A DNA stretch of 64,000 nucleotides from Minisyncoccota bacterium (GTDB lineage Bacteria; Patescibacteriota; Minisyncoccia; Phycocordibacterales; UBA9973), in the NCBI GenBank assembly GCA_036517215.1, contig DATDXF010000016.1:3175-67174 (forward strand), in the 5' to 3' direction. The notes beneath the pieces were generated by a model. It saw only the letters and a list, made by a program, of their open reading frames with translations, had not been told where the DNA came from and did no database searches. Shown in pieces: positions 4,740 through 34,963 of the stretch (position 1 is the first letter of the stretch; every line of letters starts with the position of its first letter). The translations under genes were made by a program, and so were the position numbers.

Positions 4740-5402
4740 ATGAGTTTTTTAGACACCATACTTGAGATAATTTTCCCGACAAAATGCGTATTTTGCGGCA
4801 AAAACGGGGACGACCTATGCCTTGAGTGCCTAAGCGGTGCGCCAGCGGCAGAGCGAGAAAGCGCAAAGTGGATATACCCAGTGTATGATTACCGTCATCC
4901 GGCCATTAAAAAATCACTATGGCTACTAAAGTATAAGGGCAAAAAAAGACTTGCCGGTGTTTTTGCGGAAACTCTTTATGAAAAAATTATAGAAGAGTTG
5001 TCCGAATTGTCGGTAATGGAAAATTTCAATCAGCCGATACTGGTTCCCATCCCTCTTGCCTCCGCGAGATACCGGGAAAGGGGGTTCAATCAGTCGGAAT
5101 TGATTTGCAAAGAGCTGATAAAAATAAATGGCGAGCGCCAGTCGGGCATAGAGTTAAAATTGGGGAATAATATCTTAACCAAGACTAAAGACACGGTACA
5201 CCAGGCTCGCATCAAGAACCGGATTGCCCGGCTTAAAAATATTGCCGGAAGTTTCGAGGTAAATAATCCGCTAGCGGTAAAAAGAAAAAACATAATTCTT
5301 ATAGACGATATCTTGACTACCGGAGCCACCCTCACGGAAGCGCGAAAAGTGCTGAAACGCTCCGGGGCGCGAAAAATAATAGCATTCACTTTGGCGCATT
5401 AG
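4740..5402 (+). CDS. comFC: ComF family protein (phosphoribosyltransferase-domain competence protein)
   Basis: N-terminal double CxxC zinc finger (CVFCGKNGDDLCLECL), C-terminal PRTase motif ILIDDILTTGATL. Confidence 0.8.
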   Translation: MSFLDTILEIIFPTKCVFCGKNGDDLCLECLSGAPAAERESAKWIYPVYDYRHPAIKKSLWLLKYKGKKRLAGVFAETLYEKIIEELSELSVMENFNQPILVPIPLASARYRERGFNQSELICKELIKINGERQSGIELKLGNNILTKTKDTVHQARIKNRIARLKNIAGSFEVNNPLAVKRKNIILIDDILTTGATLTEARKVLKRSGARKIIAFTLAH

Positions 5403-5453
5403 GGCACAGAAAAGATTACATAATGTCGTATTTAAGATGGTATAATATTTCGC

Positions 5454-8144: not shown

Positions 8145-9332
8145 ATGAAACATTGTAAAGATTGCGAGCCGGCTCAAGAAATACACGCGATTGCTTATAT
8201 GTCGGTTGTTTTTGGGTGGCTGGACCAGCCGCTTTTCGACATAATGGAGCTCGTCTTCAAAAACACCGCGGAAAAAATTTCTAATAAAATAACCCTGCCA
8301 TTTTTTAAAACTATGGTTTTTTTAAAACTGGGATATTTTACCGATAAACCAGACAAAAATGACACCTGGCGCACAAAATGTTTTTGGGAAGAAGCGGAGC
8401 GCCGAGGCATAAAAATGCGGGAGTTTCACTTGGGGCCAGTGCGCGACGGCTTTATCGCCGAATATAAAGGTAAAACGATGATATTTGACGGACTGCCACG
8501 TCCCGGACTGGAAGAATCCCCCGCCCTTAAATGGATGGACAACAAAGGCACCATGAAAGAGAAATTTTTAAAAGAAGGCCTGCCGGTTGCCCGCGGCGGA
8601 GTCGCTTTTACCAAACGTACCGCTCTTGAAATTTTTAATAGCATAACTAAGCCAGTTATTACCAAACCCAACCTAGGGTCCCGGAGCAGGCACACTACGA
8701 TACACTTGAACACCCCGCAGGACTTGATTATGGGTTTTAAAAAAGCTAAAAAACTCTCCCCGTTAGTAGTCATTGAAGAAGAGCTCCGCGGATATCTTTT
8801 CCGCGGAACCTTGATAGACCGCAAGCTCGCGGGCGTGGTAAGGCGGGATCAACCTGAAGTTACCGGAGACGGAATACATACCTTGCGCGAACTTATGGAA
8901 AAAGAAAACGAGAGACCTGAGCGCATGGGTCCTATTTTCCATCAGATTGTGGTGGATAAAGAGACGGAAACCGAACTGCTAAGGGAAAAAATAACCATGA
9001 ATGATATCCCGGAAAAAGGACGGGTAGTTACTTTTTCCCAAAAAACCAGCCGCGGCTGCGGAGGCACCACCACGGAAGTTACGGATATAATACACCCGGA
9101 TAATGTGGAGATGCTGGAACACGTGGGGAAGTTCTTAAACGACCCCCTTGTCGGCGTGGATTTTATAATGGAAGATATAACCAAATCGTGGAAAGAAGAA
9201 CAACATTGTGGCATCATAGAGTGCAACAGCCTGCCTTTCATAGACCTGCACCACTATCCCCTTTTCGGAAAGCCAAATAACGTAGCCGGAAAACTTTGGG
9301 ACCTGGTGTTGTCGGAATCCAAAACTGATTAA
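8145..9332 (+). CDS. ATP-grasp fold ligase-like protein
   Basis: 395 aa; central region resembles ATP-grasp domain (RimK/cyanophycin-synthetase-like), assignment by pattern only. Confidence 0.4.
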   Translation: MKHCKDCEPAQEIHAIAYMSVVFGWLDQPLFDIMELVFKNTAEKISNKITLPFFKTMVFLKLGYFTDKPDKNDTWRTKCFWEEAERRGIKMREFHLGPVRDGFIAEYKGKTMIFDGLPRPGLEESPALKWMDNKGTMKEKFLKEGLPVARGGVAFTKRTALEIFNSITKPVITKPNLGSRSRHTTIHLNTPQDLIMGFKKAKKLSPLVVIEEELRGYLFRGTLIDRKLAGVVRRDQPEVTGDGIHTLRELMEKENERPERMGPIFHQIVVDKETETELLREKITMNDIPEKGRVVTFSQKTSRGCGGTTTEVTDIIHPDNVEMLEHVGKFLNDPLVGVDFIMEDITKSWKEEQHCGIIECNSLPFIDLHHYPLFGKPNNVAGKLWDLVLSESKTD

Positions 9333-9430
9333 AGTAAAATAATTTGGTCACAATATAATACTTGGTGATAAAAACGTCTGGGATAAAGTGACGGAGTGGA
9401 TAGATAAAATAAAAGAGTTAAAATAAGTTA

Positions 9431-10447
9431 CTAAAGTTTCTTCAGGAATTTGTCCCGAAACCTGGAAAGTATGAGCGGGCTACCGTGTTCATCAAGCGGC
9501 ACTTCGTCAACAATAAAACCATATACATCAATATTATCTACAATGTTGCGAAGTTTTGGGTCAGCGTTAATTTGTCTTTCTGCCGCAAAAAGCGCATCCA
9601 TGTCTTTCAACACTAAAATACCTTGCCCAAAAATTCCTTCATTTTTTTCGCGAGCTGTTAAACTAGTGCCTATATCTCCCCGCAAAGAATCTCCTACGAA
9701 TATCATTCTACCCTTAGGGGTTGAAACGCCTTTTGATTCCAGCACATCAAGCAAATGATGTATCGCGAGCTCCTTTCCTCCCCCGGTCATAGTTTCATCA
9801 GTAGCAATGTCTAAAAATATATCGGAGAGTTTTAAATATTTTGCCAGCTTATCCACAAAAACTTTTGCGTTGGCAGTGAAACCAAACATGGGAATTCCAA
9901 GTTTTGCGTATATATGAGCGAGTTTAAATATCGGAACTATGTTTGATTTTTTGAATTCTTCCGGAGAAATTTCGTAGATTTCATCGCATATCTTTGCAGC
10001 AAGTTCTCCATACTCTTTTAGAATACCCGCTGCTATATTATGCGCGGAATGTCCCGGCTCATCTATCTCTTCTTTGTGCGGCTCAAAACGTTCTTTAAAA
10101 TAAACTTCCGGGTCTCTCCATTCAGTACGACCGTCAATATAGATTCCCTTCATGCGGTCAAACTCACGAAATGAATTCCCAAGTTTGAAGCCTTTATAAT
10201 ATGTTTCTTCCAACTCCAAGGGTTCTTGTTCCGGAAAAAGCTTTGATATCGCTTTGCCATGAATTGTCGAAAGATGCGCGAGTGTTCCGTCAATATCAAA
10301 GAAGGCAATCGCCCGCGGTTTTCCGTCCGCCATTAATTCTATTTTTATTTCCTTTTTATCGCCATCCAAGCCTTCGAGTTCAGACTTAATAAATACCCAT
10401 TTTTTCTCAAATTCGGATGACTGGTAAAAATCTTCAAAAGGATCCAT
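9431..10447 (-). CDS. HAD-superfamily hydrolase
   Basis: FFDIDGTL motif I, VGDSLRGD motif IV. Confidence 0.65.
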   Translation of the reverse strand: MDPFEDFYQSSEFEKKWVFIKSELEGLDGDKKEIKIELMADGKPRAIAFFDIDGTLAHLSTIHGKAISKLFPEQEPLELEETYYKGFKLGNSFREFDRMKGIYIDGRTEWRDPEVYFKERFEPHKEEIDEPGHSAHNIAAGILKEYGELAAKICDEIYEISPEEFKKSNIVPIFKLAHIYAKLGIPMFGFTANAKVFVDKLAKYLKLSDIFLDIATDETMTGGGKELAIHHLLDVLESKGVSTPKGRMIFVGDSLRGDIGTSLTAREKNEGIFGQGILVLKDMDALFAAERQINADPKLRNIVDNIDVYGFIVDEVPLDEHGSPLILSRFRDKFLKKL

Positions 10448-10986: not shown

Positions 10987-12123
10987 TCAAAAAAGCATGA
11001 AAAGCAGCGAAAAGAGAGCACCTGCCAATAGCCCCGCGACTAGGCTGCTTACGAATATCATCGCGCCATAGAAAATTGCCCGTGCGGCATTTATAATTAT
11101 TTCCCGGAACATAATATATTCCAGAACTCCCTCTTGGTTGGCTTTTTCGTAAGTCATCACATCGGCTGGAATATAAATCATCTTGGTAGACAAACCGCTT
11201 GCGACATTTACCGCAAAGGCATGCGAAACGGTTGTGGCAAAAACACGGCCGAGACCTATGACGGCGTTGGCCGCCGACCCCGCCCAAATTGTTTTCCTTT
11301 TGAATTTATCCGCAAACTTGCCTATTATCAAGTCGGTCGCAAGCGATATTCCACTAGCTATCGTAGCAATCAAACCAAGCATACCGTAGTCTCCCACTAT
11401 GCGCAGAAACACAAAGATGGACCATATTATTCCACTAGCTCCAGTTTCTATCCCGTAAGCAATAAAAGCAAGAGTGTCTCCTAAAGAACGGTTTTTGAAA
11501 ATTCTTTTCAGAGAAAACTCGGTATCCACTTCTTCTTCCCGCGACAAAAAGAGCGGAGCGGCTGAAACCAAAAGAAGCGCGGAAGCCAGTATAAATATAA
11601 ATTTGAAACCAAAACCAACTATAAGCAATCCGCCGATAAAAGGTCCCAGGGCATGGAAAGTCGCAGTGAAGAATTTAAGTTTGCCCACCTCCATCCCCCT
11701 TTCTCCTTTCTTGGTAATCTTAGACAAGTCTAGGTGTAGCGCTGTAAAGTACAAAGCTCGTTTTGCTCCGGCGGTAAAAAGCAGGAACCCAAAAACATAT
11801 AAGCTGCCATTAATCTGCAGTAAGTATAAAAGTAGGAAAAAACATATTTCAAAGACTTTGCTACCCAGAATGGTATGCTTGATGCCAAGTTTTTTTATTA
11901 CTTGTGTCGCCGGAATTACGAAAAGCGCATGAAGCGCATTTTCAACAGCGAAAAAGAGGAAAACTTGGGGCAAGGAATACCCTAGGTTGAAAAGATAAAT
12001 GGGAATAAAAACGCTCACGAGGGCGAGAGCGAGGGCCCGAATGGAAGAACTGGCATACATCTCCCGGAGCTCGTTGCCCCGTAAGATATGAAATTGCCCT
12101 ATATTCATGTGATGAGACTCCAT
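10987..12123 (-). CDS. MFS-type transporter
   Basis: 378 aa, ~12 predicted TM helices. Confidence 0.6.
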   Translation of the reverse strand: MESHHMNIGQFHILRGNELREMYASSSIRALALALVSVFIPIYLFNLGYSLPQVFLFFAVENALHALFVIPATQVIKKLGIKHTILGSKVFEICFFLLLYLLQINGSLYVFGFLLFTAGAKRALYFTALHLDLSKITKKGERGMEVGKLKFFTATFHALGPFIGGLLIVGFGFKFIFILASALLLVSAAPLFLSREEEVDTEFSLKRIFKNRSLGDTLAFIAYGIETGASGIIWSIFVFLRIVGDYGMLGLIATIASGISLATDLIIGKFADKFKRKTIWAGSAANAVIGLGRVFATTVSHAFAVNVASGLSTKMIYIPADVMTYEKANQEGVLEYIMFREIIINAARAIFYGAMIFVSSLVAGLLAGALFSLLFMLF

Positions 12124-16277: not shown

Positions 16278-16369
16278 TGGCGGAGCCGGGCGGATTCGAA
16301 CCGCCGAGGGGTTTTAAAGCCCCTGCCTCTTTAGCAAAGAGGTACGTTAGACCACTCTGACACGGCTCC
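16278..16369 (-). tRNA. tRNA-Ser (anticodon GCU), type II, CCA encoded
   Basis: Minus-strand reading GGAGCCG...CCTCT-TTGCTAA-AGAGG...long variable arm...GGCGG-TTCGAAT-CCGCC-CGGCTCC-G-CCA; 7/7 acceptor pairs. Confidence 0.8.
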
Positions 16370-16458: not shown

Positions 16459-16544
16459 GGAGAGATGGGTGAGTGGTTTAAACCAACAGTTTACTAAACT
16501 GTCGTCCCCTAAAAGGACCGAGGGTTCGAATCCCTCTCTCACCG
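16459..16544 (+). tRNA. Type II tRNA with apparent anticodon ACU (Ser-like; G73 discriminator, 3-bp D-stem, 17-nt variable arm), CCA not encoded
   Basis: GGAGAGA-TG-GGT-GAGTGGTTTAA-ACC-A-ACAGT-TTACTAA-ACTGT-CGTCCCCTAAAAGGACC-GAGGG-TTCGAAT-CCCTC-TCTCACC-G; acceptor 6/7 (A3:A70 mismatch). Confidence 0.6.
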
Positions 16545-16589
16545 CATTGACAACTTAGTATCGGTGTGTCCTTGTTGCTTATGGCAACA

Positions 16590-16611
16590 GTGCGACCCGA
16601 GTATGTAAAAT
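16590..16611. repeat. Left copy of imperfect direct repeat GTGCGACCCGA-GTAT-GTAAAAT (attL-like)
   Basis: 11-mer GTGCGACCCGA plus GTAT..AAAAT shared with 21721-21761; abuts recQ stop codon. Confidence 0.45.
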
Positions 16612-18422
16612 CATTTAAGAAAAATTCTAGCTAAACGTAATTCTTCATATGAATAATCCTCCCCCAGAATTTCACGTACAGGAGCCAATAAAATACCACC
16701 AGTTTTTTTAAATGCTCCTGTGATTATTTCAAGTCTTTCATTTGAAGGTTTTAAATATGAAATATCTAATTGTGAATCAGTGGCAAAAATTTTTTCAATA
16801 TGACTCACGATGGTGCTGATAGACAATCCACGTCTTTTTGTTATTTCATCGATAGAAAACTTTTGCAGTACTAATTTTTTGGTTTCATCAAAAGTTGAAC
16901 CAGTATATGTGGATTTTGTTTTCGCTTCCGTTTTATAAGTTTCTACATATTGATTAATAACAGACATAAACTTTCCTCCGAACTGCAAAAGTTTCCTATC
17001 TCCGACTCCGCTGATTTCCAAAAACGCCTCTCTAGTCCGTGGAAAATGAGTTGCCATTTCGCGCAAAGCTTTATCTCCGAAAATCATATATGGCGGGAGT
17101 TTTAATTTAGACGCCTCTTGTGTTCTTATTTTCCTTAATTCTTCAAATAATATAGAGTCATATGCTTTATTTTCACTAGAGATATAGGTTCGTGGTCTAA
17201 CAACCTTAAGATTTACTCTATATGTTTCTAGCGGAGTTTGCGCTACGCATCTATCGCAATTTCCACAATTTGCCTCCTTGTATTCTTCATTGAAATAGCG
17301 AAGTAAAAATCTACGACGACACCCCTGGAGATTCCCATATCGTAAGACATATTCTAAATTTTCTTGTGTTTTTTTCTGTTCTGCCGCATCCGCTATATCC
17401 TGTATAAAATAATCATGCTTAAATTTATCGGCATACGAGAAAAATAAAACACACTGTGCAGGCAATCCATCGCGTCCCGCTCGACCAGTTTCTTGATAAT
17501 ACCCTTCAACTGACTTTGGTAAGCTGTGATGAATGACAAGTCGCACATCAGGCTTATCTATCCCCATACCAAACGCAATGGTCGCAACCATAATATTAAT
17601 TTCATCTCGGATAAATTTCTCTTGGTTATCTTTTCTCGTTTTTGAATCCAGACCAGCATGATAGGCGGCAGCTTTGAATCCACGATCGTTCAATTTATTT
17701 ACTAGTGTTTCCGTATCGTTGCGGGAAAAACAATATATAATTACACTCCCATCTCGATATTTGTTTAGTAACGCAAGAATTGACTTAAAAGAATCCTTTT
17801 TTGGCAAGACTTCATAACTCAGATTGGGACGATTAAAACTGGAAATAAAAATTTGAGGACTTTCTAGGCTCAGTTGTTTTACGATATCTTCACGCACTTT
17901 TTCTGTAGCAGTGGCAGTAAGTGCAATAATCGGAATTATAGGAAATTTCTTTCGCAATAATTTTAAATTCCGATAATCAGGCCTGAAATCATGTCCCCAT
18001 TCTGAAATGCAGTGAGCTTCATCAATAGCAATCAAACTTATTTTTAAAGTATGCAAGAAGTCTTCAAACCCCGGCACAGCTAATCGTTCAGGAGCTATAT
18101 ATAAAATTTTTAATTTCCCTGTTTTAGCTTTGTCCATAATACTGACAATTTCTACTGGAGAAAGTGTGCTGTTGATAAGGTCAGCCGTGATGCCGTTTGT
18201 ATGTAGGGCATCAACCTGATCTTTCATAAGGGAAATAAGCGGAGAAATAACAATGGCAATGCCTTCCATCATAAGTGCGGAAAGCTGGAAACAAAGAGAT
18301 TTTCCTCCGCCTGTCGGCATGAGCACGACGCAATCCTTGCTCTCCAATACTCGCTCAATAATTTCTTTCTGAAGCGGTCTGAATTCTTCGTATCCGAAAT
18401 ATTTTTTCAATATATCTTTCAT
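16611..18422 (-). CDS. recQ: ATP-dependent DNA helicase RecQ
   Basis: 603 aa; DEAH box, CISEWGHDFRPDY, zinc-binding CxxC...CxxC, RQC and HRDC-like C-terminus. Confidence 0.85.
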   Translation of the reverse strand: MKDILKKYFGYEEFRPLQKEIIERVLESKDCVVLMPTGGGKSLCFQLSALMMEGIAIVISPLISLMKDQVDALHTNGITADLINSTLSPVEIVSIMDKAKTGKLKILYIAPERLAVPGFEDFLHTLKISLIAIDEAHCISEWGHDFRPDYRNLKLLRKKFPIIPIIALTATATEKVREDIVKQLSLESPQIFISSFNRPNLSYEVLPKKDSFKSILALLNKYRDGSVIIYCFSRNDTETLVNKLNDRGFKAAAYHAGLDSKTRKDNQEKFIRDEINIMVATIAFGMGIDKPDVRLVIHHSLPKSVEGYYQETGRAGRDGLPAQCVLFFSYADKFKHDYFIQDIADAAEQKKTQENLEYVLRYGNLQGCRRRFLLRYFNEEYKEANCGNCDRCVAQTPLETYRVNLKVVRPRTYISSENKAYDSILFEELRKIRTQEASKLKLPPYMIFGDKALREMATHFPRTREAFLEISGVGDRKLLQFGGKFMSVINQYVETYKTEAKTKSTYTGSTFDETKKLVLQKFSIDEITKRRGLSISTIVSHIEKIFATDSQLDISYLKPSNERLEIITGAFKKTGGILLAPVREILGEDYSYEELRLARIFLK

Positions 18423-20542
18423 ATAAGTGAATTACTCTTTAATTTTTTATAAAATTTTTTTCGCTTTTTAAATTGATGATTGAGAAATTCTATCTTCTCG
18501 TCGTGAAAATCAATAATTTGTTTTATGCCTTCTCCGCGAAGTCTGCCGATATATTGTACCAGTTTTCCTTCAAACGAAAATGGAAATGCAAGCACTATCG
18601 TATCAACGCCGTGCACATCAAATCCCTCGCCGAGCAGTTGTCCGGTGGCAAGGAGCACTTGAAAGTTGCCTGCTTTAATTTGGTCAAATTTTATCTTTCT
18701 GGAACGCGCGCTATCGTCGCCAGAAACAGTAATGATTTCGGTTTCACCCCGCAGATATAAGTTGAGTATTTCAATATGTTCTTTGCGCTCGGTAAGCACC
18801 AGGACTTTTCTTTTTGATTTTATTTCCCTAAGAATTGCTTGTACCACCAATTCATTTCTCGCAGAGTCAAACGAAATCACTTTTGCAAGTGCTTCATAGT
18901 GATCTATTTTATAGCGAAACGGCAGAGTGATTTTTGTCGGATGAATGCTTACCTCAAATGTTTTGTTGTCTGACATATTAAAAGATTTTATTTCAGCAAT
19001 AACTGGTCCAATCATAAACTCAGTAATTTTTTCGCTTCCATATTTTCGTTCATGAGTTGCTGTAAGTCCAAAGCAATATCTGCTTTCCAGTAACATAATC
19101 AATTCCCTGTATGTTTTTGCGGGAATGTGATGACACTCGTCAATAATTATTACACCGAAGGAATTCTTAATTTCTTTTAAGTTTTTATATCTCATAAGAC
19201 TTTGTAGTGTAGCAATTGTGACTTGTTTTCCAATCTTTTTTCGTGTCCCCGAAATCGTCCCAATCTGCGTTTTTGGAATGCCTAAAAATTGTTCTGTGCG
19301 TTCAACCCACTGGGAAAGCAGTTGATTTCGATTTACAAGAATAAGTGCGGGTAATTCGAGGCGCGCTATGATTTCTAGGGCAATGACAGTCTTTCCAAAT
19401 CCGGGCGGCGAGACAATAATGCCATTTGTTTTATTTTTAATAATTTCAAGTATTTTTTCTTGTTCTTTTCGAAGTGTAATACTGCTCTTAAACTTTATAA
19501 CTTTATGTTTTTTATATTCTTCTATGACTTTATAAGTAATATTTTTCTCTTTAAGGTAATTTGTCAGTTTTTCAAGAAAACCTCTGGGAAGCGAGATCTC
19601 ATCCGTGCGATCTTGTATTAAGTTGAAATATTTTTCTATGCCAAATACGGATTTACCCAGTTTCTTTTTTGTAGCATATTCCTTGTTAAAAAGATTAAGC
19701 TCTTCTTTTATAAATGAACTAATTACTGATGAAATTTCCTGCTTCTTAATCCGTATCGAGCCATCCAAAACAATATGTACGCAAGAATTATTCAGTGGTT
19801 GTTCATCAGTACCACTGTGTGCAAATAAAAAATCATAAACAGAATCTAATTCTTGAGCCGTGTGTTTATGGCTTGTTTTTAAAAATTCCCATTGATTATG
19901 GTATGGGTTAAAGTTATCATAAAAATAAAATAAAGAAGCATTATGCTTTACGCATTCGCCCTGAAGCGGTAATGCGATTAAATTGCCAAACCCGCCTTCA
20001 GTTATAGTATCTTGGTTTGGAAATAACCGATCAAAACTAACTTCTTTTGCAAATTCAGAATAACCAAAAACCTTTCTTATGATTTCCAGCAAAATAGCTC
20101 GTGACTTCCAGCATGGATATTTTTCTTCAAAGAAAATCCACACGTGGGCGCCATTTCCTGAGCGGGAAATTTCTGTATATGCTTTTAGATTTAGGTTAAT
20201 GCATGCACTCATAAATTTCTGGCTGTCAGTTTTCCAGTCTGCCTCATCAAAATCAGCAACAATAAAATAAGAAGTATTGTCAGGAAGTATTGGATATATG
20301 CCAATAGTTTCTTTGCCTAAAAAATGATTTAGTAAAGTCTCGTCCGTAAGTGGAATTAATTTTTTATTTTCAAAATCTTTTATTGTTCCACCCCTTGCCC
20401 TGTGAGCATTGAACTCATTCCAATCAAAGGAGTACGCGGGAGACCAGCCGCTTTTATCATTTTTTTGCCACCGTCTGGCATAAACATCAGTACGAGCATT
20501 AAAAAGATTATGGTAAATGGTCAGCTTTTCTTGGTTCGTCAT
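18419..20542 (-). CDS. Fusion protein: N-terminal archaeo-eukaryotic Prim-Pol domain + C-terminal SF2 (ResIII/DEAH-type) helicase
   Basis: AEP motifs I (FIVADFDEADW), II (SGNGAHVWIFF), III (FDRLFPNQ...GNLIALP); then Walker A PPGFGKT, DECHH, LTAT, HELICc-like QYIGRLRGEG; stop overlaps recQ start (4-nt). Confidence 0.7.
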   Translation of the reverse strand: MTNQEKLTIYHNLFNARTDVYARRWQKNDKSGWSPAYSFDWNEFNAHRARGGTIKDFENKKLIPLTDETLLNHFLGKETIGIYPILPDNTSYFIVADFDEADWKTDSQKFMSACINLNLKAYTEISRSGNGAHVWIFFEEKYPCWKSRAILLEIIRKVFGYSEFAKEVSFDRLFPNQDTITEGGFGNLIALPLQGECVKHNASLFYFYDNFNPYHNQWEFLKTSHKHTAQELDSVYDFLFAHSGTDEQPLNNSCVHIVLDGSIRIKKQEISSVISSFIKEELNLFNKEYATKKKLGKSVFGIEKYFNLIQDRTDEISLPRGFLEKLTNYLKEKNITYKVIEEYKKHKVIKFKSSITLRKEQEKILEIIKNKTNGIIVSPPGFGKTVIALEIIARLELPALILVNRNQLLSQWVERTEQFLGIPKTQIGTISGTRKKIGKQVTIATLQSLMRYKNLKEIKNSFGVIIIDECHHIPAKTYRELIMLLESRYCFGLTATHERKYGSEKITEFMIGPVIAEIKSFNMSDNKTFEVSIHPTKITLPFRYKIDHYEALAKVISFDSARNELVVQAILREIKSKRKVLVLTERKEHIEILNLYLRGETEIITVSGDDSARSRKIKFDQIKAGNFQVLLATGQLLGEGFDVHGVDTIVLAFPFSFEGKLVQYIGRLRGEGIKQIIDFHDEKIEFLNHQFKKRKKFYKKLKSNSLI

Positions 20543-20550
20543 ACATAATT

Positions 20551-21600
20551 TTATTTCTTCTTATACCTCGTCGTTCGTCCCTGCCCGATGCGTTCCACTT
20601 TTTTCAGCCGTAGAAGAGTATTGAGTGCTTGCGATACAGTAGGGCGTGCAACTTTAGTGACTTTTGAAATTTCACCAGGCGTTGCCTCCGGCACTTTTAA
20701 GAGATATTGCCACACTAAAAGTTGTTTCGGAGAAAGAAGTTTCTCAATATTTTCTTTTGATAATAATTCAATTGCTTGCCTTGCTTGGGTAAGTAGAGCA
20801 GTGAAAAAGAATTCAAGCCATGGCATAATATTTGAGTTGTCAGTTTTTAAAGTTTTCTGGCTTTTACGAAGAGCTATGTAATATTCCGCTTTATTGTCTT
20901 CAACTAATTTCTCATGCGAAACATATGGCATATATGCATAGCCGGCCTTGAGCATCATTAAATTTGTCAGCACACGAGAAAGCCTGCCGTTACCATCTTG
21001 AAAAGGATGAATGTTTAAAAACTCTACGAGAAAGTTGCCGATAATAATGATTGGATGAATTTCTTTTATAACAACGGCTTCTCTTGTCCACTCTACCAAC
21101 TCAAGCATTTCTTTCGGCGTAAGCCACGCAGGTGTAGTATCAAATAATACGCCAATAGATTGACCAGCTTCATTCACCATTTCAACCCTGTTTTCACCTT
21201 TTTTATATTCACCTCGGTGAAGTTTATCTTTCTCAACATATTTTAAAAGTTCTTTATGAAGATGCTGAATACTGCTTTCTGAAAATGGTATCTTGTCATA
21301 AGAGTTGAATACGTTTTCAAGCAGTTCATAGTATCCTCGCACTTCCTGCTTGTCCCGATCGGTGAATTTTTGCATAGAAAGACCACGCATCATTTTTTCG
21401 ATGTCTTCATCGGAGAGCTTAGCTCCCTCGATACGAGTTGATGCACCAGTTGATGTAACTAAAACCGAACGCTTCAACCGTCCAAGTGCCTGTGGATTTA
21501 TTTCCGCTCCACCAATCCATCTGCCTTTTAATTCATCAATTTGATTGATGAATGCCCATAAATTTTGTGGTATATTTTCAATGCGTTTATTGTAGTTCAT
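20551..21600 (-). CDS. Fic/Doc family protein with C-terminal winged-HTH
   Basis: Canonical Fic motif HPFQDGNGRLSRVL; C-terminal wHTH-like segment; 8 nt upstream of Prim-Pol-helicase gene. Confidence 0.8.
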   Translation of the reverse strand: MNYNKRIENIPQNLWAFINQIDELKGRWIGGAEINPQALGRLKRSVLVTSTGASTRIEGAKLSDEDIEKMMRGLSMQKFTDRDKQEVRGYYELLENVFNSYDKIPFSESSIQHLHKELLKYVEKDKLHRGEYKKGENRVEMVNEAGQSIGVLFDTTPAWLTPKEMLELVEWTREAVVIKEIHPIIIIGNFLVEFLNIHPFQDGNGRLSRVLTNLMMLKAGYAYMPYVSHEKLVEDNKAEYYIALRKSQKTLKTDNSNIMPWLEFFFTALLTQARQAIELLSKENIEKLLSPKQLLVWQYLLKVPEATPGEISKVTKVARPTVSQALNTLLRLKKVERIGQGRTTRYKKK

Positions 21601-21713
21601 ATTTGTAATCTAATGTATTACCTATATGAGATTATATTAGATTAAGCAAACAAAAGCAAGGCTTTTTGTGGAATTTAAAATGTCTTTCAAAAAGGATATA
21701 TTTTACAATACAT

Positions 21714-22247
21714 CTAAGAGGTGCGACCCGACTGGTTCGAGTCCCAAGTATACCGCAAAATTTCGGGTAAAGAATTTCCGCCAAAAAATGCGCCCGCGCG
21801 AAGCGCGGGTGATGTGGCCGAATCCGCACCAAACCCAAACCCCGCCAGGATTTTCCACGCTCCGCGTGGCTCAAAAAGTATGGTTCGATTCAAAATTTTA
21901 AAGTTCGAACCGACTTTTTGGAACAAATGAAGATTTTCTTCATTTGTTTTTTCGTTTGCCAATTCTGCATTGGTAATATTGTCCTTTAGGAATTTTTCTG
22001 TAAGTTCGAACCGATTATGAGATTTTTTCTCAAAAGCTGATAATTTCTCTTTGAGAAGCTGTTTAGAGCTAACGAGCGCACTTTTTGCATCGCGATATTC
22101 CTCTAGTGAAAGTGCGTTCTCTAAATACGCCGACATTAGCTTCTCTATTTTAGAATCCAAAAGAGAAATTTCGGCTTTTGTGCTTTGAGAAAAAATCTCA
22201 CTCGATTGGACGGCCAACGATTGATCCTTTTTGTTTTCTTCAATCAT
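21714..22247 (-). CDS. Hypothetical coiled-coil protein (C-terminal third doubtful)
   Basis: Plausible start MIEENKK at 22245-22247; residues 1-125 look like a real coiled-coil protein; C-terminal part runs through a GC-rich hairpin/terminator region. Confidence 0.3.
   Translation of the reverse strand: MIEENKKDQSLAVQSSEIFSQSTKAEISLLDSKIEKLMSAYLENALSLEEYRDAKSALVSSKQLLKEKLSAFEKKSHNRFELTEKFLKDNITNAELANEKTNEENLHLFQKVGSNFKILNRTILFEPRGAWKILAGFGFGADSATSPALRAGAFFGGNSLPEILRYTWDSNQSGRTS
21721..21761. repeat. Right copy of imperfect direct repeat GTGCGACCCGA-[ctggttcgagtcccaa]-GTAT-accgc-AAAAT (attR-like), with T-loop-like GGTTCGAGTCC
   Basis: Direct comparison with 16590-16611; extra 16+5 nt relative to left copy. 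Confidence 0.45.
21789..21812 (-). terminator. Rho-independent terminator (CCCGCGC-TTC-GCGCGGG then ATTTTTT on minus strand)
   Basis: 7-bp GC stem, triloop, T-run; lies inside the 3' part of ORF 21714..22433. Confidence 0.5.
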
Positions 22248-22566
22248 CCATTGGCATCTAGGCACTCGTAGCCCTAGCGGAAATGCCCGAGGCGGATGCC
22301 GAGGGTGCACCTCAAAAAACTTTGCGTAATCACTAAAATATAAACATGGTATAATTTGCCCGAGACAATGTATTTTGAATTTGAATTTCTCCTGCGGGCA
22401 GAATTCTGAATCTCGCCGAATTTCAAAAAACATTCAGCCGAGGCAGGGCGAATCCATATCCCCCAAAATATTGTTTCGCCCTGCCGAATCCATTTTTAGT
22501 AATTTAATCATTTGGATTTAGCTCGAAGTAATTTCGAACTTTGTCCAGTAAACACCGCCAATTTTT

Positions 22567-34419: not shown

Positions 34420-34565
34420 AATTTAATTATATGCCCGTTCGACATGCCCTTCAACTTCGTTCAGGGCAAGCTCAGGGCACTCGCCTCAAAATACCCTTAG
34501 AGTTCCTTGGGTGTTTTTGCTGTGGCTTGCCACGAGCGAATTTTGTCACTACAAAATGAGTCGAG

Positions 34566-34963
34566 TGGAGATGACGGGAATCGAACCCGTGTGCAAAAGG
34601 TTTTTGCAAAGAAGTCTACATGCTTAGCGAGCTTTTTTGTTTAGATTAAAAAATTCTTAAGCGGGCCAAATATTTTTTAACCGAGTTCTAAGTTTTCGAA
34701 AAATGTTCGAACGGGCATTTCCTTATCCCGATAATATTACACCTCTACTCATATATCGGAAGTCTATGAGAGAGACGCCGGCACTCGCTTACGCGAAAGC
34801 TGGAACGAAAGCAAAGTCCTTCATACCGAAGTAATCAGAAACAATTGCTTTAGTTTTGGTAGTCAATTTTGCAATTAACATTTGAACGAATTTTCACGAG
34901 ATTACGTTCATGCTCGACATGCATCAATAGCAAAGCGACCTTCTGTCTATGCCTTGCATCCCC
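34566..34963 (-). ncRNA. ssrA: tmRNA (transfer-messenger RNA)
   Basis: 5' GGGGAUG pairs 7/7 with 3' CAUCUCC-A including G3:U70 alanine identity pair; T-arm ACGGG-UUCGAUU-CCCGU; in-frame GCA resume codon at nt 92 then 27 sense codons ending GCU-UUC-GCG-UAA (..PAFA); smpB immediately upstream on same strand. Confidence 0.8.

Follow-up and report, generated by a model that had tools for sequence, protein, structure and literature searches.

The locus described here raises the question whether three coupled genes, situated beside two tRNA genes of an ultra-small bacterium of the candidate phyla radiation (CPR; Patescibacteria) and encoding a Fic protein, a fusion of a primase-polymerase (Prim-Pol) with a helicase-like ATPase, and a RecQ helicase, are an inherited part of the genome or a cassette that has moved between genomes, and what such a combination might serve for. 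The stretch analysed (hereafter the window) comprises 64,000 nucleotides of a Minisyncoccota bacterium (GenBank assembly GCA_036517215.1, contig DATDXF010000016.1, positions 3,175 to 67,174 of the forward strand); positions given without a further handle refer to it, and loci of other genomes carry handles such as L013. A preliminary description had regarded the trio as a candidate inserted module, bracketed by imperfect direct repeats, with an architecture typical of replication initiators, or else as a possible defence or maintenance system. The answer towards which we lean on balance is that of an accessory cassette for conflict or genome maintenance, which moves horizontally and occupies a hot spot of integration at tRNA genes. 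By analogy with characterised relatives, the cassette is probably used against foreign or transposing DNA rather than being the remnant of a plasmid replication system.

The operon consists of three tightly packed open reading frames (ORFs) on the minus strand and a promoter, listed here in the direction of transcription:

21606 to 21660, minus strand: conserved promoter with the -35 element TTGCTT and the -10 element TATAAT, recognised in an alignment of 11 loci; upstream edge of the cassette.
20551 to 21600, minus strand: class-II Fic AMP-transferase of 349 aa with a C-terminal winged helix (Pfam Fic, MarR_2/TrmB).
18419 to 20542, minus strand: IEE-like protein of 707 aa, a Z1568-like/'TOTE' Prim-Pol of the archaeo-eukaryotic primase (AEP) type joined to an XPB-like superfamily 2 (SF2) ATPase (Pfam, BLASTP).
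16611 to 18422, minus strand: RecQ helicase of 603 aa (Pfam DEAD, Helicase_C, RecQ_Zn_bind, HRDC, HTH_40).

The gap between the Fic and the AEP gene measures 8 nt, and the ATG of recQ overlaps the stop codon of the AEP gene as ATGA, which points to translational coupling; with the Pfam matches and the ORF coordinates, the gene identities and the operon structure proposed earlier hold. Among relatives of at least 60% identity, Fic precedes the AEP gene in nearly every readable context and RecQ follows it in 7, and linkage of recQ to the AEP gene is found in L001, L019, L022, L023, L024 and L048. Because this gene order recurs across relatives, the three proteins appear to be functionally linked.

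The middle protein matches the Pfam family PF22548 ('AEP-TOTE') with an E-value of 1.6e-78 over profile positions 1-229 of 230, such that the Prim-Pol assignment of its N-terminal domain is borne out by the AEP profile search, and the match is followed by ResIII and Helicase_C. The same model is matched at 4.4e-99 by an IEE-type protein of E. coli. IEE is the insertion sequence (IS) excision enhancer of enterohaemorrhagic E. coli and combines a Z1568-like AEP with an SF2 part (Kusumoto 2011; Calvo 2023, PMC9943667); the record of E. coli O157:H7 EDL933 encodes a 786-aa protein, whose length, strain and AEP plus SF2 architecture fit the IEE of PMC9943667. In BLASTP, the window protein shares 32% identity with the O157 IEE (E 9e-120), residues 1-701 being collinear with 45-773. 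Its residues D97, D99, H133, D171 and K384 align with the catalytic D142, D144, H178, D216 and K451 of IEE; none of them varies, and neither do the DECH motif and motif VI, among 12 homologues with identities down to 51%. The SF2 motifs GFGKT (containing K384), DECHH and QYIGRLRG are present, as are the motifs A (hDhD), B (sxH) and C (hD) and the collinear SF2 ATPase that characterise the IEE family. Judged by all these sequence characters, the middle protein is a member of the IEE/Z1568-like family. It has in common with IEE the full-length collinear architecture, the catalytic residues, the Walker A lysine, the DExH motif and the arginine finger, whereas it is 79 residues shorter, lacking mostly the N-terminal 44 or so residues of IEE, and its gene stands in an operon with Fic and RecQ in a CPR bacterium, IEE being without these partners. 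Among solved structures, the ATPase half comes closest to archaeal XPB/Rad25 (E 4e-24) and the AEP half to the CRISPR-associated Prim-Pol CAPP (7nqd; E 3e-15), and the PADLOC profile 'PrimPol, CAS-associated' is matched at 1.5e-71.

The identification with the IEE family bears on the initiator reading, according to which the trio would be the part that replicated an integrative plasmid or element, now decayed, with the Prim-Pol::helicase protein as initiator, Fic as addiction toxin and the flanking 11-mers as attachment (att) sites. Many mobile elements are indeed replicated by modules of Prim-Pol plus helicase (PMC11724360), the cassette has moved in the course of evolution and is flanked by repeats elsewhere (see below), and full-length homologues of the middle protein were found by translated search in 98 plasmid records. 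These plasmid copies, however, are often situated beside toxin-antitoxin genes and IS elements, as cargo and not at the replicon, and the ATPase half is of the XPB-like SF2 type, not of the SF3, DnaB or MCM type of known initiators. The characterised homologue IEE is a Mn-dependent, error-prone polymerase that performs microhomology-mediated end joining (MMEJ), a DNA-dependent ATPase without unwinding activity, and a promoter of the transposase-dependent excision of copy-out-paste-in IS elements (PMC9943667; 10.1101/2023.06.07.543989). Furthermore, a separate replication protein, YfjI (DUF3987), is encoded beside IEE in E. coli islands, the Prim-Pol Ppol of the Thermus element ICETh2 is not needed for replication of that element (PMC7693054), and a repeat scan found no origin-like iterons in the cassette. 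A role as replication initiator is therefore decidedly unlikely.

No full-length homologue of the middle protein was found in phage records, phage genomes giving helicase-only matches, and none of its relatives lies among viral contigs. In E. coli, the homologous gene is named 'TOTE conflict system archaeo-eukaryotic primase domain-containing protein' by NCBI and is present in 876 of 5426 complete genomes. It follows alpA-yfjI-yfjJ in a variable slot of CP4-57-like islands (L060, 3058-9235; L064, 2006-8229), and the same slot of CP4-57 in E. coli K-12 (L063, 5645-12154) holds the anti-phage pair abpB/abpA, AbpA having domains of the Cap4-nuclease and HamA types. Judged by this setting, IEE may be a conflict gene in E. 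coli, too. Both IEE and the window protein are carried as accessory genes in integrative islands at hot spots of the tRNA type. The K-12 protein YfjK (AbpB, the radiation-resistance 'cryptic helicase') was considered as a homologue and rejected: BLASTP gives an E-value of 0.001 for the P-loop only, an AEP domain is lacking, and YfjK shares with IEE only the island slot.

Concerning the two partners, the Fic protein matches Pfam Fic at 1.7e-14 and has the active site HPFQDGNGRLSR (motif HxFx(D/E)GNGRxxR) and the N-terminal inhibitory motif STRIEG in its translation; the best match among solved structures is 8uqu (6.5e-33). The PADLOC profile of SoFic is matched at 3.8e-42 over residues 42-346, and the NCBIfam equivalog of SoFic is matched with 45.5 bits against a cutoff of 550. 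The RecQ protein combines the helicase core, the Zn-binding domain and HRDC of bacterial RecQ, scores 534.6 with TIGR00614 (recQ_fam; cutoff 219.8) and reaches 629.9 with TIGR01389, just under the cutoff of 640.2. It also matches the PADLOC profile PsyrT (5.6e-111), although its domains suggest a genuine RecQ and not a toxin of the PsyrT type.

Upstream of Fic, the palindrome TAATCTAAT-N21-ATTAGATTA (21606-21644) with arms of 9 nt overlaps the promoter, including the -10 element. In the alignment of the 11 loci its symmetry is maintained by the paired changes TAATCTTAT/ATAAGATTA in L020-L022, and since it remains symmetric under compensatory substitution, it is presumably the site of a dimeric DNA-binding protein. 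The winged helix of the Fic protein itself would be the obvious candidate binder.

That the operon is an acquired unit is indicated by its composition, its edges and its distribution. By homology the cassette extends from 16613 to about 21660, limits that are sharp and recur in three genomic contexts. Its GC content is 36.3%, compared with 43.6% in the rest of the window, and is the lowest of 118 sliding 5-kb windows; in L001, the cassette has 36.1% compared with 44.8%, such that it lies 7-9 points below its host in both cases. In L001, the trio (Fic 93%, AEP 85% and RecQ 77% identical at the amino-acid level) is situated beside tRNA-Val and tRNA-Arg(TCT), an intact large serine recombinase is encoded divergently from Fic, and homology to the window stops at the same two points, i.e., at the recQ stop codon and some 60 nt before the start codon of Fic. 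L001 also contains inverted repeats of 164 nt (5244-5407 and 11900-12063; 98% identity) around the serine recombinase, Fic, the IEE-like gene and RecQ, one arm being the 3' end of the recombinase gene with the last 5 nt of tRNA-Arg, and the other an inverted copy downstream of RecQ; they could delimit an invertible segment or a rearranged pair of elements.

The synteny comparison proposed earlier gave a divided result. In L013, from a metagenome-assembled genome labelled Ca. Saccharibacteria, the synteny runs from the tRNA-Ser pair through the aminotransferase gene and RecG as far as tRNA-Ile(TAT) at 71-78% nucleotide identity, and the cassette is absent: window positions 16546-22564 are replaced by about 2 kb with two unrelated ORFs, and homology resumes at 22565 (blastn). 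In L019, a contig of 115 kb that is syntenic with the window from the tmRNA gene to the region left of the tRNAs, the cassette is present at the same site, window positions 16613-21659 corresponding to 13936-8887 with 76.6% nucleotide identity. Its proteins there are 91% (Fic), 72% (AEP) and 82% (RecQ) identical to those of the window, and the trio lies 30 nt from the tRNA-Ser(ACT) of L019. Of the two syntenic relatives, L013 is the closer one by the identity of its flanks. In L019, the IEE-like reading frame is interrupted by a single in-frame stop, at codon 148 (10442-10444), where the homologues have Arg, in a trio with intact Fic and RecQ; the stop may reflect recent pseudogenisation or a sequencing error.

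A core of only two genes, Fic and the IEE-like gene, occurs elsewhere at tRNA-Arg(TCT) (L005), after ddl (L007, L018) and at tRNA-Trp (L021), and also in L020, L022, L027, L029, L036, L039 and L042. Long direct repeats bracket the core in four places, and the bare core of about 3.4 kb is found in three independent contexts, with 3.39-3.44 kb between the repeats of L005, L007 and L021. In L005, the repeats are 98% identical over 46 nt; with 81% identity they reach a length of 105 nt, and they take in the 3' half of tRNA-Arg. In L007, they measure 62 nt (95%) and correspond to the 3' end of ddl, the distal copy being followed by the terminator of that gene. The repeats of L021 (63 nt, 94%) are situated at the 3' flank of tRNA-Trp, and those of L027 (101 nt, 85%) consist of tRNA-like fragments and bound an island of 7.2 kb with a SNF2 helicase. 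An origin of the 46-105-nt repeats as fill-in target-site duplications was rejected: in L005 the 46-nt core is near-identical and the tRNA-like arm about 29% diverged, a pattern that rather suggests recombination between an element-borne copy and the host target. The contig L027 additionally displays tandem tRNA-like 3' fragments (119-1068, 8150-8312 and 9304-9424), not called by ARAGORN, that bound successive small islands, of which one contains Fic, the IEE-like gene, the SNF2 helicase and a gene of unassigned product, and the next a Fic/Doc protein of 189 aa; no integrase was seen in these islands.

That the cassette was acquired and is mobile on an evolutionary scale is well supported. Of the inserted mobile module seen by the preliminary description beside the tRNA genes, the discrete and acquired character thus stands, with the lowest GC content of the window and the absence from L013, whereas the repeats do not show it to be a recent insertion.

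In the window, the borders of the cassette are less clear; the following features are situated there:

16278 to 16369, minus strand: tRNA-Ser(GCU) with encoded CCA (ARAGORN), conserved in L013 and L019.
16459 to 16545, plus strand: tRNA-Ser(ACU), its 3' end facing the cassette (ARAGORN; Rfam tRNA, 54.3 bits).
16546 to 16612: spacer from the tRNA to the recQ stop codon, with a hairpin (16573-16589) and the left repeat of the preliminary description (16590-16611), defined by sequence and by comparison with L013 and L019.
21721 to 21761, plus strand: right repeat of the preliminary description, composed of a decayed tRNA 3' half and the recombinase-element arm CAAAAT...
21714 to 22433, minus strand: truncated large serine recombinase, with homology to the C-terminal coiled coil and tail at 21867-22250.
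21783 to 21809, minus strand: intrinsic terminator of the recombinase remnant, a GC-rich hairpin, CCCGCGCTTCGCGCGGG (7 GC pairs), before a T-run, from the terminator scan.
22442 to 22485: hairpin with arms of 18 nt between the remnant and the aminotransferase gene (inverted repeat I17).

Both direct repeats are located where they had been reported, and their common 11-mer GTGCGACCCGA is found at 16590 and 21721 only within the 64 kb. An exact match of at least 11 nt between the flank segments occurs in about 0.6% of shuffles and in 0.66% of equally spaced real segment pairs, and 27 of 5000 shuffles and 35 of 4524 real pairs do as well as the gapped alignment of the repeats (p about 0.005-0.008). 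With blastn-short on flanks of 500 x 500 nt, the E-value is 0.047; all these figures are uncorrected for the free choice of the segments in the preliminary description. Moreover, the pair is absent from the top 20 repeat families that a general repeat finder returned for the region. The cassette-free L013 reads ...AGTATCGGCATGACCCGAGTACATAAAAAT right after its tRNA-Ser(ACT), matching the left repeat; because of its presence there, the left copy either predates the cassette or survived its loss, and it corresponds to conserved host spacer downstream of tRNA-Ser(ACT). The statement that direct repeats bracket the trio is accordingly right as to positions and uniqueness, whereas the statistics are weak and the left copy appears to be older than the cassette.

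The right repeat is of a different nature. It contains a T-loop, GGTTCGAGTCC, at 21734-21744 and an acceptor end ...ACCG that terminates at 21755, in the orientation expected for the 3' part of a tRNA. The T-loop motif GGTTCGANTCC occurs five times in the window, four times inside real tRNA or tmRNA genes and once at 21734; Rfam gave no tRNA match in 21640-21900. The repeat lies within the last codons of ORF 21714-22433, of which residues 62-189 match residues 341-472 of the 507-aa serine recombinase of L001 (BLASTP, E 1e-9). A Resolvase catalytic domain was not matched by Pfam in this ORF, homology being confined to the C-terminal third of the L001 enzyme. The C-terminal 178 residues of the remnant have 222 database homologues with 60-92% identity, and those of at least 260 aa carry PF07508 (Recombinase) and PF13408 (Zn_ribbon_recom). 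The tails of homologues read through an antisense tRNA T-arm ('RDSNPR'). In L049, where a neighbouring gene fragment has Resolvase and Recombinase domains, the recombinase gene is joined by its 3' end directly to the 3' half of tRNA-Ser(GCU), the sequence there being ...GGCTCCG/CAAAATTTCG (the slash marks the junction); the window reads ...GTATACCG/CAAAATTTCGGG, i.e., it has the same CCG/CAAAATTTCG junction. The hairpin part of the strong terminator of the remnant is situated at 21809-21793, and a similar GC hairpin follows the L001 recombinase. From this organization, the right repeat is best described as a decayed tRNA 3' half joined to the arm of a dead, tRNA-Ser-specific serine-recombinase element. 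The absence of an integrase asserted by the preliminary description does not hold in that ORF 21714-22433 is the C-terminal part of a large serine recombinase, outside the bracketed segment; between the cassette boundaries no integrase was found, only Fic, the IEE-like gene and RecQ being present there.

Many homologues of the remnant are situated at contig ends, and several assemblies of the window strain break inside the remnant; these breaks are attributable to the disruption of assembly by repeated mobile sequence. The recombinase family is very widespread in CPR metagenomes, where it is mostly truncated at contig ends. Tandem full and partial copies are found in L050 (295-2846), and a split gene in L049 (9006-10570).

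On the minus strand, the order in the window is recombinase remnant, tRNA fragment, Fic, IEE-like gene, RecQ and intact tRNA. L005 and L021 share this order, the upstream repeat copy carrying a decayed tRNA 3' half 135-155 nt before Fic, and in the window, L005, L021 and L027 alike a tRNA-like fragment precedes Fic by 120-155 nt. The distance from the end of the intact tRNA to the tRNA-like fragment is 5.17 kb in the window, which equals the unit of about 3.4 kb plus recQ. At the other side, the recQ stop codon and the 3' end of tRNA-Ser(ACU) are convergent and separated by 66 nt, such that the cassette is situated at a tRNA 3' end. In the lineage of the window, the repeats would have decayed to an 11-mer and a T-loop because the event is old.

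The adjacency of remnant and right repeat also allows the interpretation that recombinase and trio were once one tRNA-Ser-specific element, of which GTGCGACCCGA would be the common core of attL and attR and the catalytic half of the recombinase was lost later. A serine recombinase neighbours the cassette in the window, in the L001 group and in L005, L020 and L039, the remnant directly adjoins the right repeat, and some large serine recombinases have common cores of 8-16 bp. However, the remnant lies outside the segment bracketed by the 11-mers, and the 3' ends of homologous recombinase genes abut the tRNA itself in L001, L010 and L049, so that the tRNA fragment marks the recombinase element's own junction and the trio lies on the host side. 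Moreover, the recombinase stands in another orientation and at another distance to Fic in every context, the long repeats of L005, L007 and L021 exclude the recombinase, unlike the products of serine recombinases, and no recombinase at all is found in L019 or L007. A common origin of both parts as a single element is therefore unlikely.

Among known systems, the organization of the locus resembles that of small tRNA-linked islands and of non-autonomous cis-mobilizable elements (CIMEs) that arise by tandem accretion. Alike are the location at a tRNA 3' end, the deviant composition and the integrase-bearing element or remnant in tandem, and, in the relatives, the direct repeats of the 3' part of the target without an integrase inside. 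The cassette differs in being very small (3.4-kb core, 5.05 kb with recQ), in the targets, which vary among near-identical cassettes, and in the nearby integrases, which are serine and not tyrosine recombinases; in the window the repeats are, in addition, almost erased.

As to defence systems, SoFic is a validated single-gene anti-phage defence of the Fic type (Millman 2022; PMC12249575; 10.1101/2022.05.11.491447). The window Fic possesses its motif HPFxDGNGRxxR, an N-terminal inhibitory motif and a C-terminal winged helix-turn-helix, whereas it is the first gene of a conserved operon, not a stand-alone gene, and scores far below the equivalog cutoff. In PsyrTA, a phage defence with a RecQ-like toxin, PsyrT is the component whose profile the window RecQ matches, but the latter has the full housekeeping RecQ architecture, and a PsyrA-like partner is lacking at the locus. 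In contrast to CAPP (PDB 7NQD/7NQF), the AEP of the window is fused to an SF2 ATPase and not to TPR or Cas partners. Cas families were not found among the neighbouring genes (no separate scan for CRISPR arrays was made), and because cas genes are lacking in the neighbourhood, the locus is not assigned to CAPP. TOTE systems (TPR, OB, TBP, Effector) were predicted by Aravind, Iyer and Burroughs in 2022, as relayed in PMC12458937. Their AEP domain component is present, homologues being named 'TOTE conflict system AEP domain-containing protein' by NCBI. The gene tables for about 10 kb on either side yielded neither a Pfam match to a TPR-OB/CSD protein nor a TBP-domain protein, and since no such partner lies within that distance, the locus is not a TOTE system as defined.

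This lack of TOTE partners is one of several results that weigh against the cassette being a mobile conflict system. The neighbourhood of the window, according to its gene tables, is not a defence island, and IEE itself is known for IS excision, not for phage defence. The repeats of the window are marginally above chance, and the local alignment of the right fragment to the 3' half of tRNA-Ser(ACU) is not above chance beyond the T-loop. Exact-protein look-ups with the aminotransferase and the major facilitator superfamily (MFS) protein yielded the same arrangement or contigs broken in the remnant, hence no empty site at the window locus, and the same strain-level look-ups revealed no excised form. 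For the ddl copy no clean empty site was found either, the nearest Ddl relatives being 54% identical. L065, where uvrC-ddl occurs without the cassette, was examined as an empty site and discarded, as its downstream genes are not homologous. Concerning the long repeats, no recombinase lies between them in any repeat-bounded copy, and serine recombinases are not known to make repeats of 50-100 nt. Finally, L019 has neither recombinase remnant nor repeats at its trio, the housekeeping genes NUDIX and Maf being situated upstream, and the identities of its trio are comparable with those found for the flanking genes, such that the cassette could simply be inherited in this clade. With the trio at the same tRNA-Ser(ACT) and no repeats, L019 presents the outcome that the preliminary description had named as refuting its proposal, and the window repeats do not suffice to mark a recent insertion.

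It follows from L019 that either the cassette occupied this tRNA ancestrally and gave way to other DNA in L013, or insertions recur at this site. A rival view is that the trio is a vertically inherited CPR operon for DNA repair or replication restart, in which the Prim-Pol/MMEJ enzyme would cooperate with RecQ and Fic would be a regulator, and which merely lies beside tRNAs and has repeats by chance. Besides the occurrence at the same site in L019, with identities resembling those of the flanks and without repeats, and the marginal repeat statistics, the RecQ score almost at the equivalog cutoff is in line with this view. CPR genomes are, moreover, poor in repair genes. Prim-Pols of the IEE type and of the AgaPP type perform repair reactions (PMC9943667, PMC11724360). 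Vertical inheritance is, however, difficult to reconcile with the absence of the operon from L013, the closer syntenic relative by flank identity, with a GC content 7-9 points under that of the host and lowest in the window and in L001, with the same cassette and the same edges at tRNA-Arg in L001, and with the two-gene core between long direct repeats at tRNA-Arg, tRNA-Trp and ddl. In addition, the in-frame stop in the AEP gene of L019 would make the gene dispensable there. We regard simple inheritance as a doubtful explanation, though one with some claim to attention.

The lack of a recombinase between the repeats could also be taken to mean that the unit of about 3.4 kb, i.e., Fic and the IEE-like gene with or without RecQ, is a self-sufficient, integrase-less element that inserts at and excises from the 3' ends of tRNA and protein genes. 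It would do so by strand switching and microhomology joining of its own Prim-Pol/ATPase, and Fic would act as regulator or addiction factor. Repeats of 46-105 nt without a recombinase between them would be explained in this way; nevertheless, such an element seems very unlikely.

For the favoured accessory cassette, we propose a history and a mechanism, the latter drawing on the biochemistry of IEE. The cassette may have entered by recombination at an att-like copy of its target, helped in trans. In the window, tandem accretion is envisaged as the simplest course of events: the recombinase element would have been situated at the tRNA first, and the cassette would then have recombined into the 3' region of the tRNA, pushing that element outward. 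The IEE-like enzyme might extend, strand-switch and end-join 3' ends of DNA at microhomologies, as they occur in intermediates of transposition, replication or invading DNA, and RecQ might unwind the branched products or migrate their branch points, junction processing being an explicit requirement of the strand-switch model of Chandler et al. For related Prim-Pols that are carried by mobile genetic elements, links have been reported to the defence of Thermus against incoming DNA (PMC7693054) and to repair by MMEJ (PMC11724360). Fic might repress the operon via the palindrome and, once its inhibitory helix is displaced, AMPylate a target, as SoFic does in abortive infection (PMC12249575).

The preliminary description had considered the gene combination new. 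The combination is common in CPR metagenomes, whereas no description of Fic together with an IEE-like gene and RecQ was found in the searchable literature, so that the claim stands for the literature only. From the sequence comparisons, the locus would represent an IEE-type Prim-Pol/ATPase wired to Fic and RecQ in a compact, apparently travelling CPR cassette. Work on IEE has until now been confined to E. coli, where the protein appears as an orphan and its part in IS excision is puzzling; in many CPR lineages its homologue is hard-wired to Fic and often translationally coupled to RecQ. The operon thereby offers IEE two candidate partners, RecQ for the proposed strand-switch intermediates and Fic for controlling or complementing the enzyme. 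The loci also document small, integrase-less, repeat-bounded cassettes at the 3' ends of tRNAs and genes in CPR bacteria, a group with little-known mobile elements and defences. If the trio is truly a defence or anti-transposon system, a mechanism based on Prim-Pol would be added to those already described; if it serves repair only, it would still explain how broken DNA is handled in repair-poor CPR genomes.

Some further observations concern the tRNA genes and the spacer at the left border. The tRNA-Ser(ACU) of the window, with an A34 anticodon, stands back to back with a normal tRNA-Ser(GCT), and the pair is kept in three related genomes; apart from Arg(ACG), A34 tRNAs are unusual in bacteria. 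The gene in the window has an A3.A70 mismatch and no encoded CCA. Its orthologue in L013 (923-1012) is perfect and has the CCA, and that in L019 (13967-14055) exhibits compensatory changes in the acceptor, anticodon and T stems. The ACT anticodon is retained in both orthologues, with compensatory stem changes, and on account of these changes in L019, tRNA-Ser(ACT) appears to be under selection. In the spacer downstream of this tRNA, the hairpin at 16573-16589 (TGTTGC-ttatg-GCAACA), with a stem of 6 bp and no T-run, is situated directly before the left repeat and represents an insertion relative to L013; at the same place L019 has a spacer of different sequence and 30 nt.

In L010 (14267-16527; Yanofskybacteria), which has a lone IEE-like gene, the 3' end of a serine recombinase gene overlaps tRNA-Gln, and the recombinase gene is preceded by a gene for a rolling-circle Rep protein (REP_ORF2-G2P); recombinase and Rep may form an integrated element of their own, at a distance of about 4 kb from the IEE-like gene. 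Elsewhere in the window, the tmRNA called by ARAGORN at 34565-34963 has an atypical predicted tag peptide, ARSNIFRKLRTRLKNIWPA*, without the usual hydrophobic end of the ...LAA type; the frame of the tag may be mispredicted.

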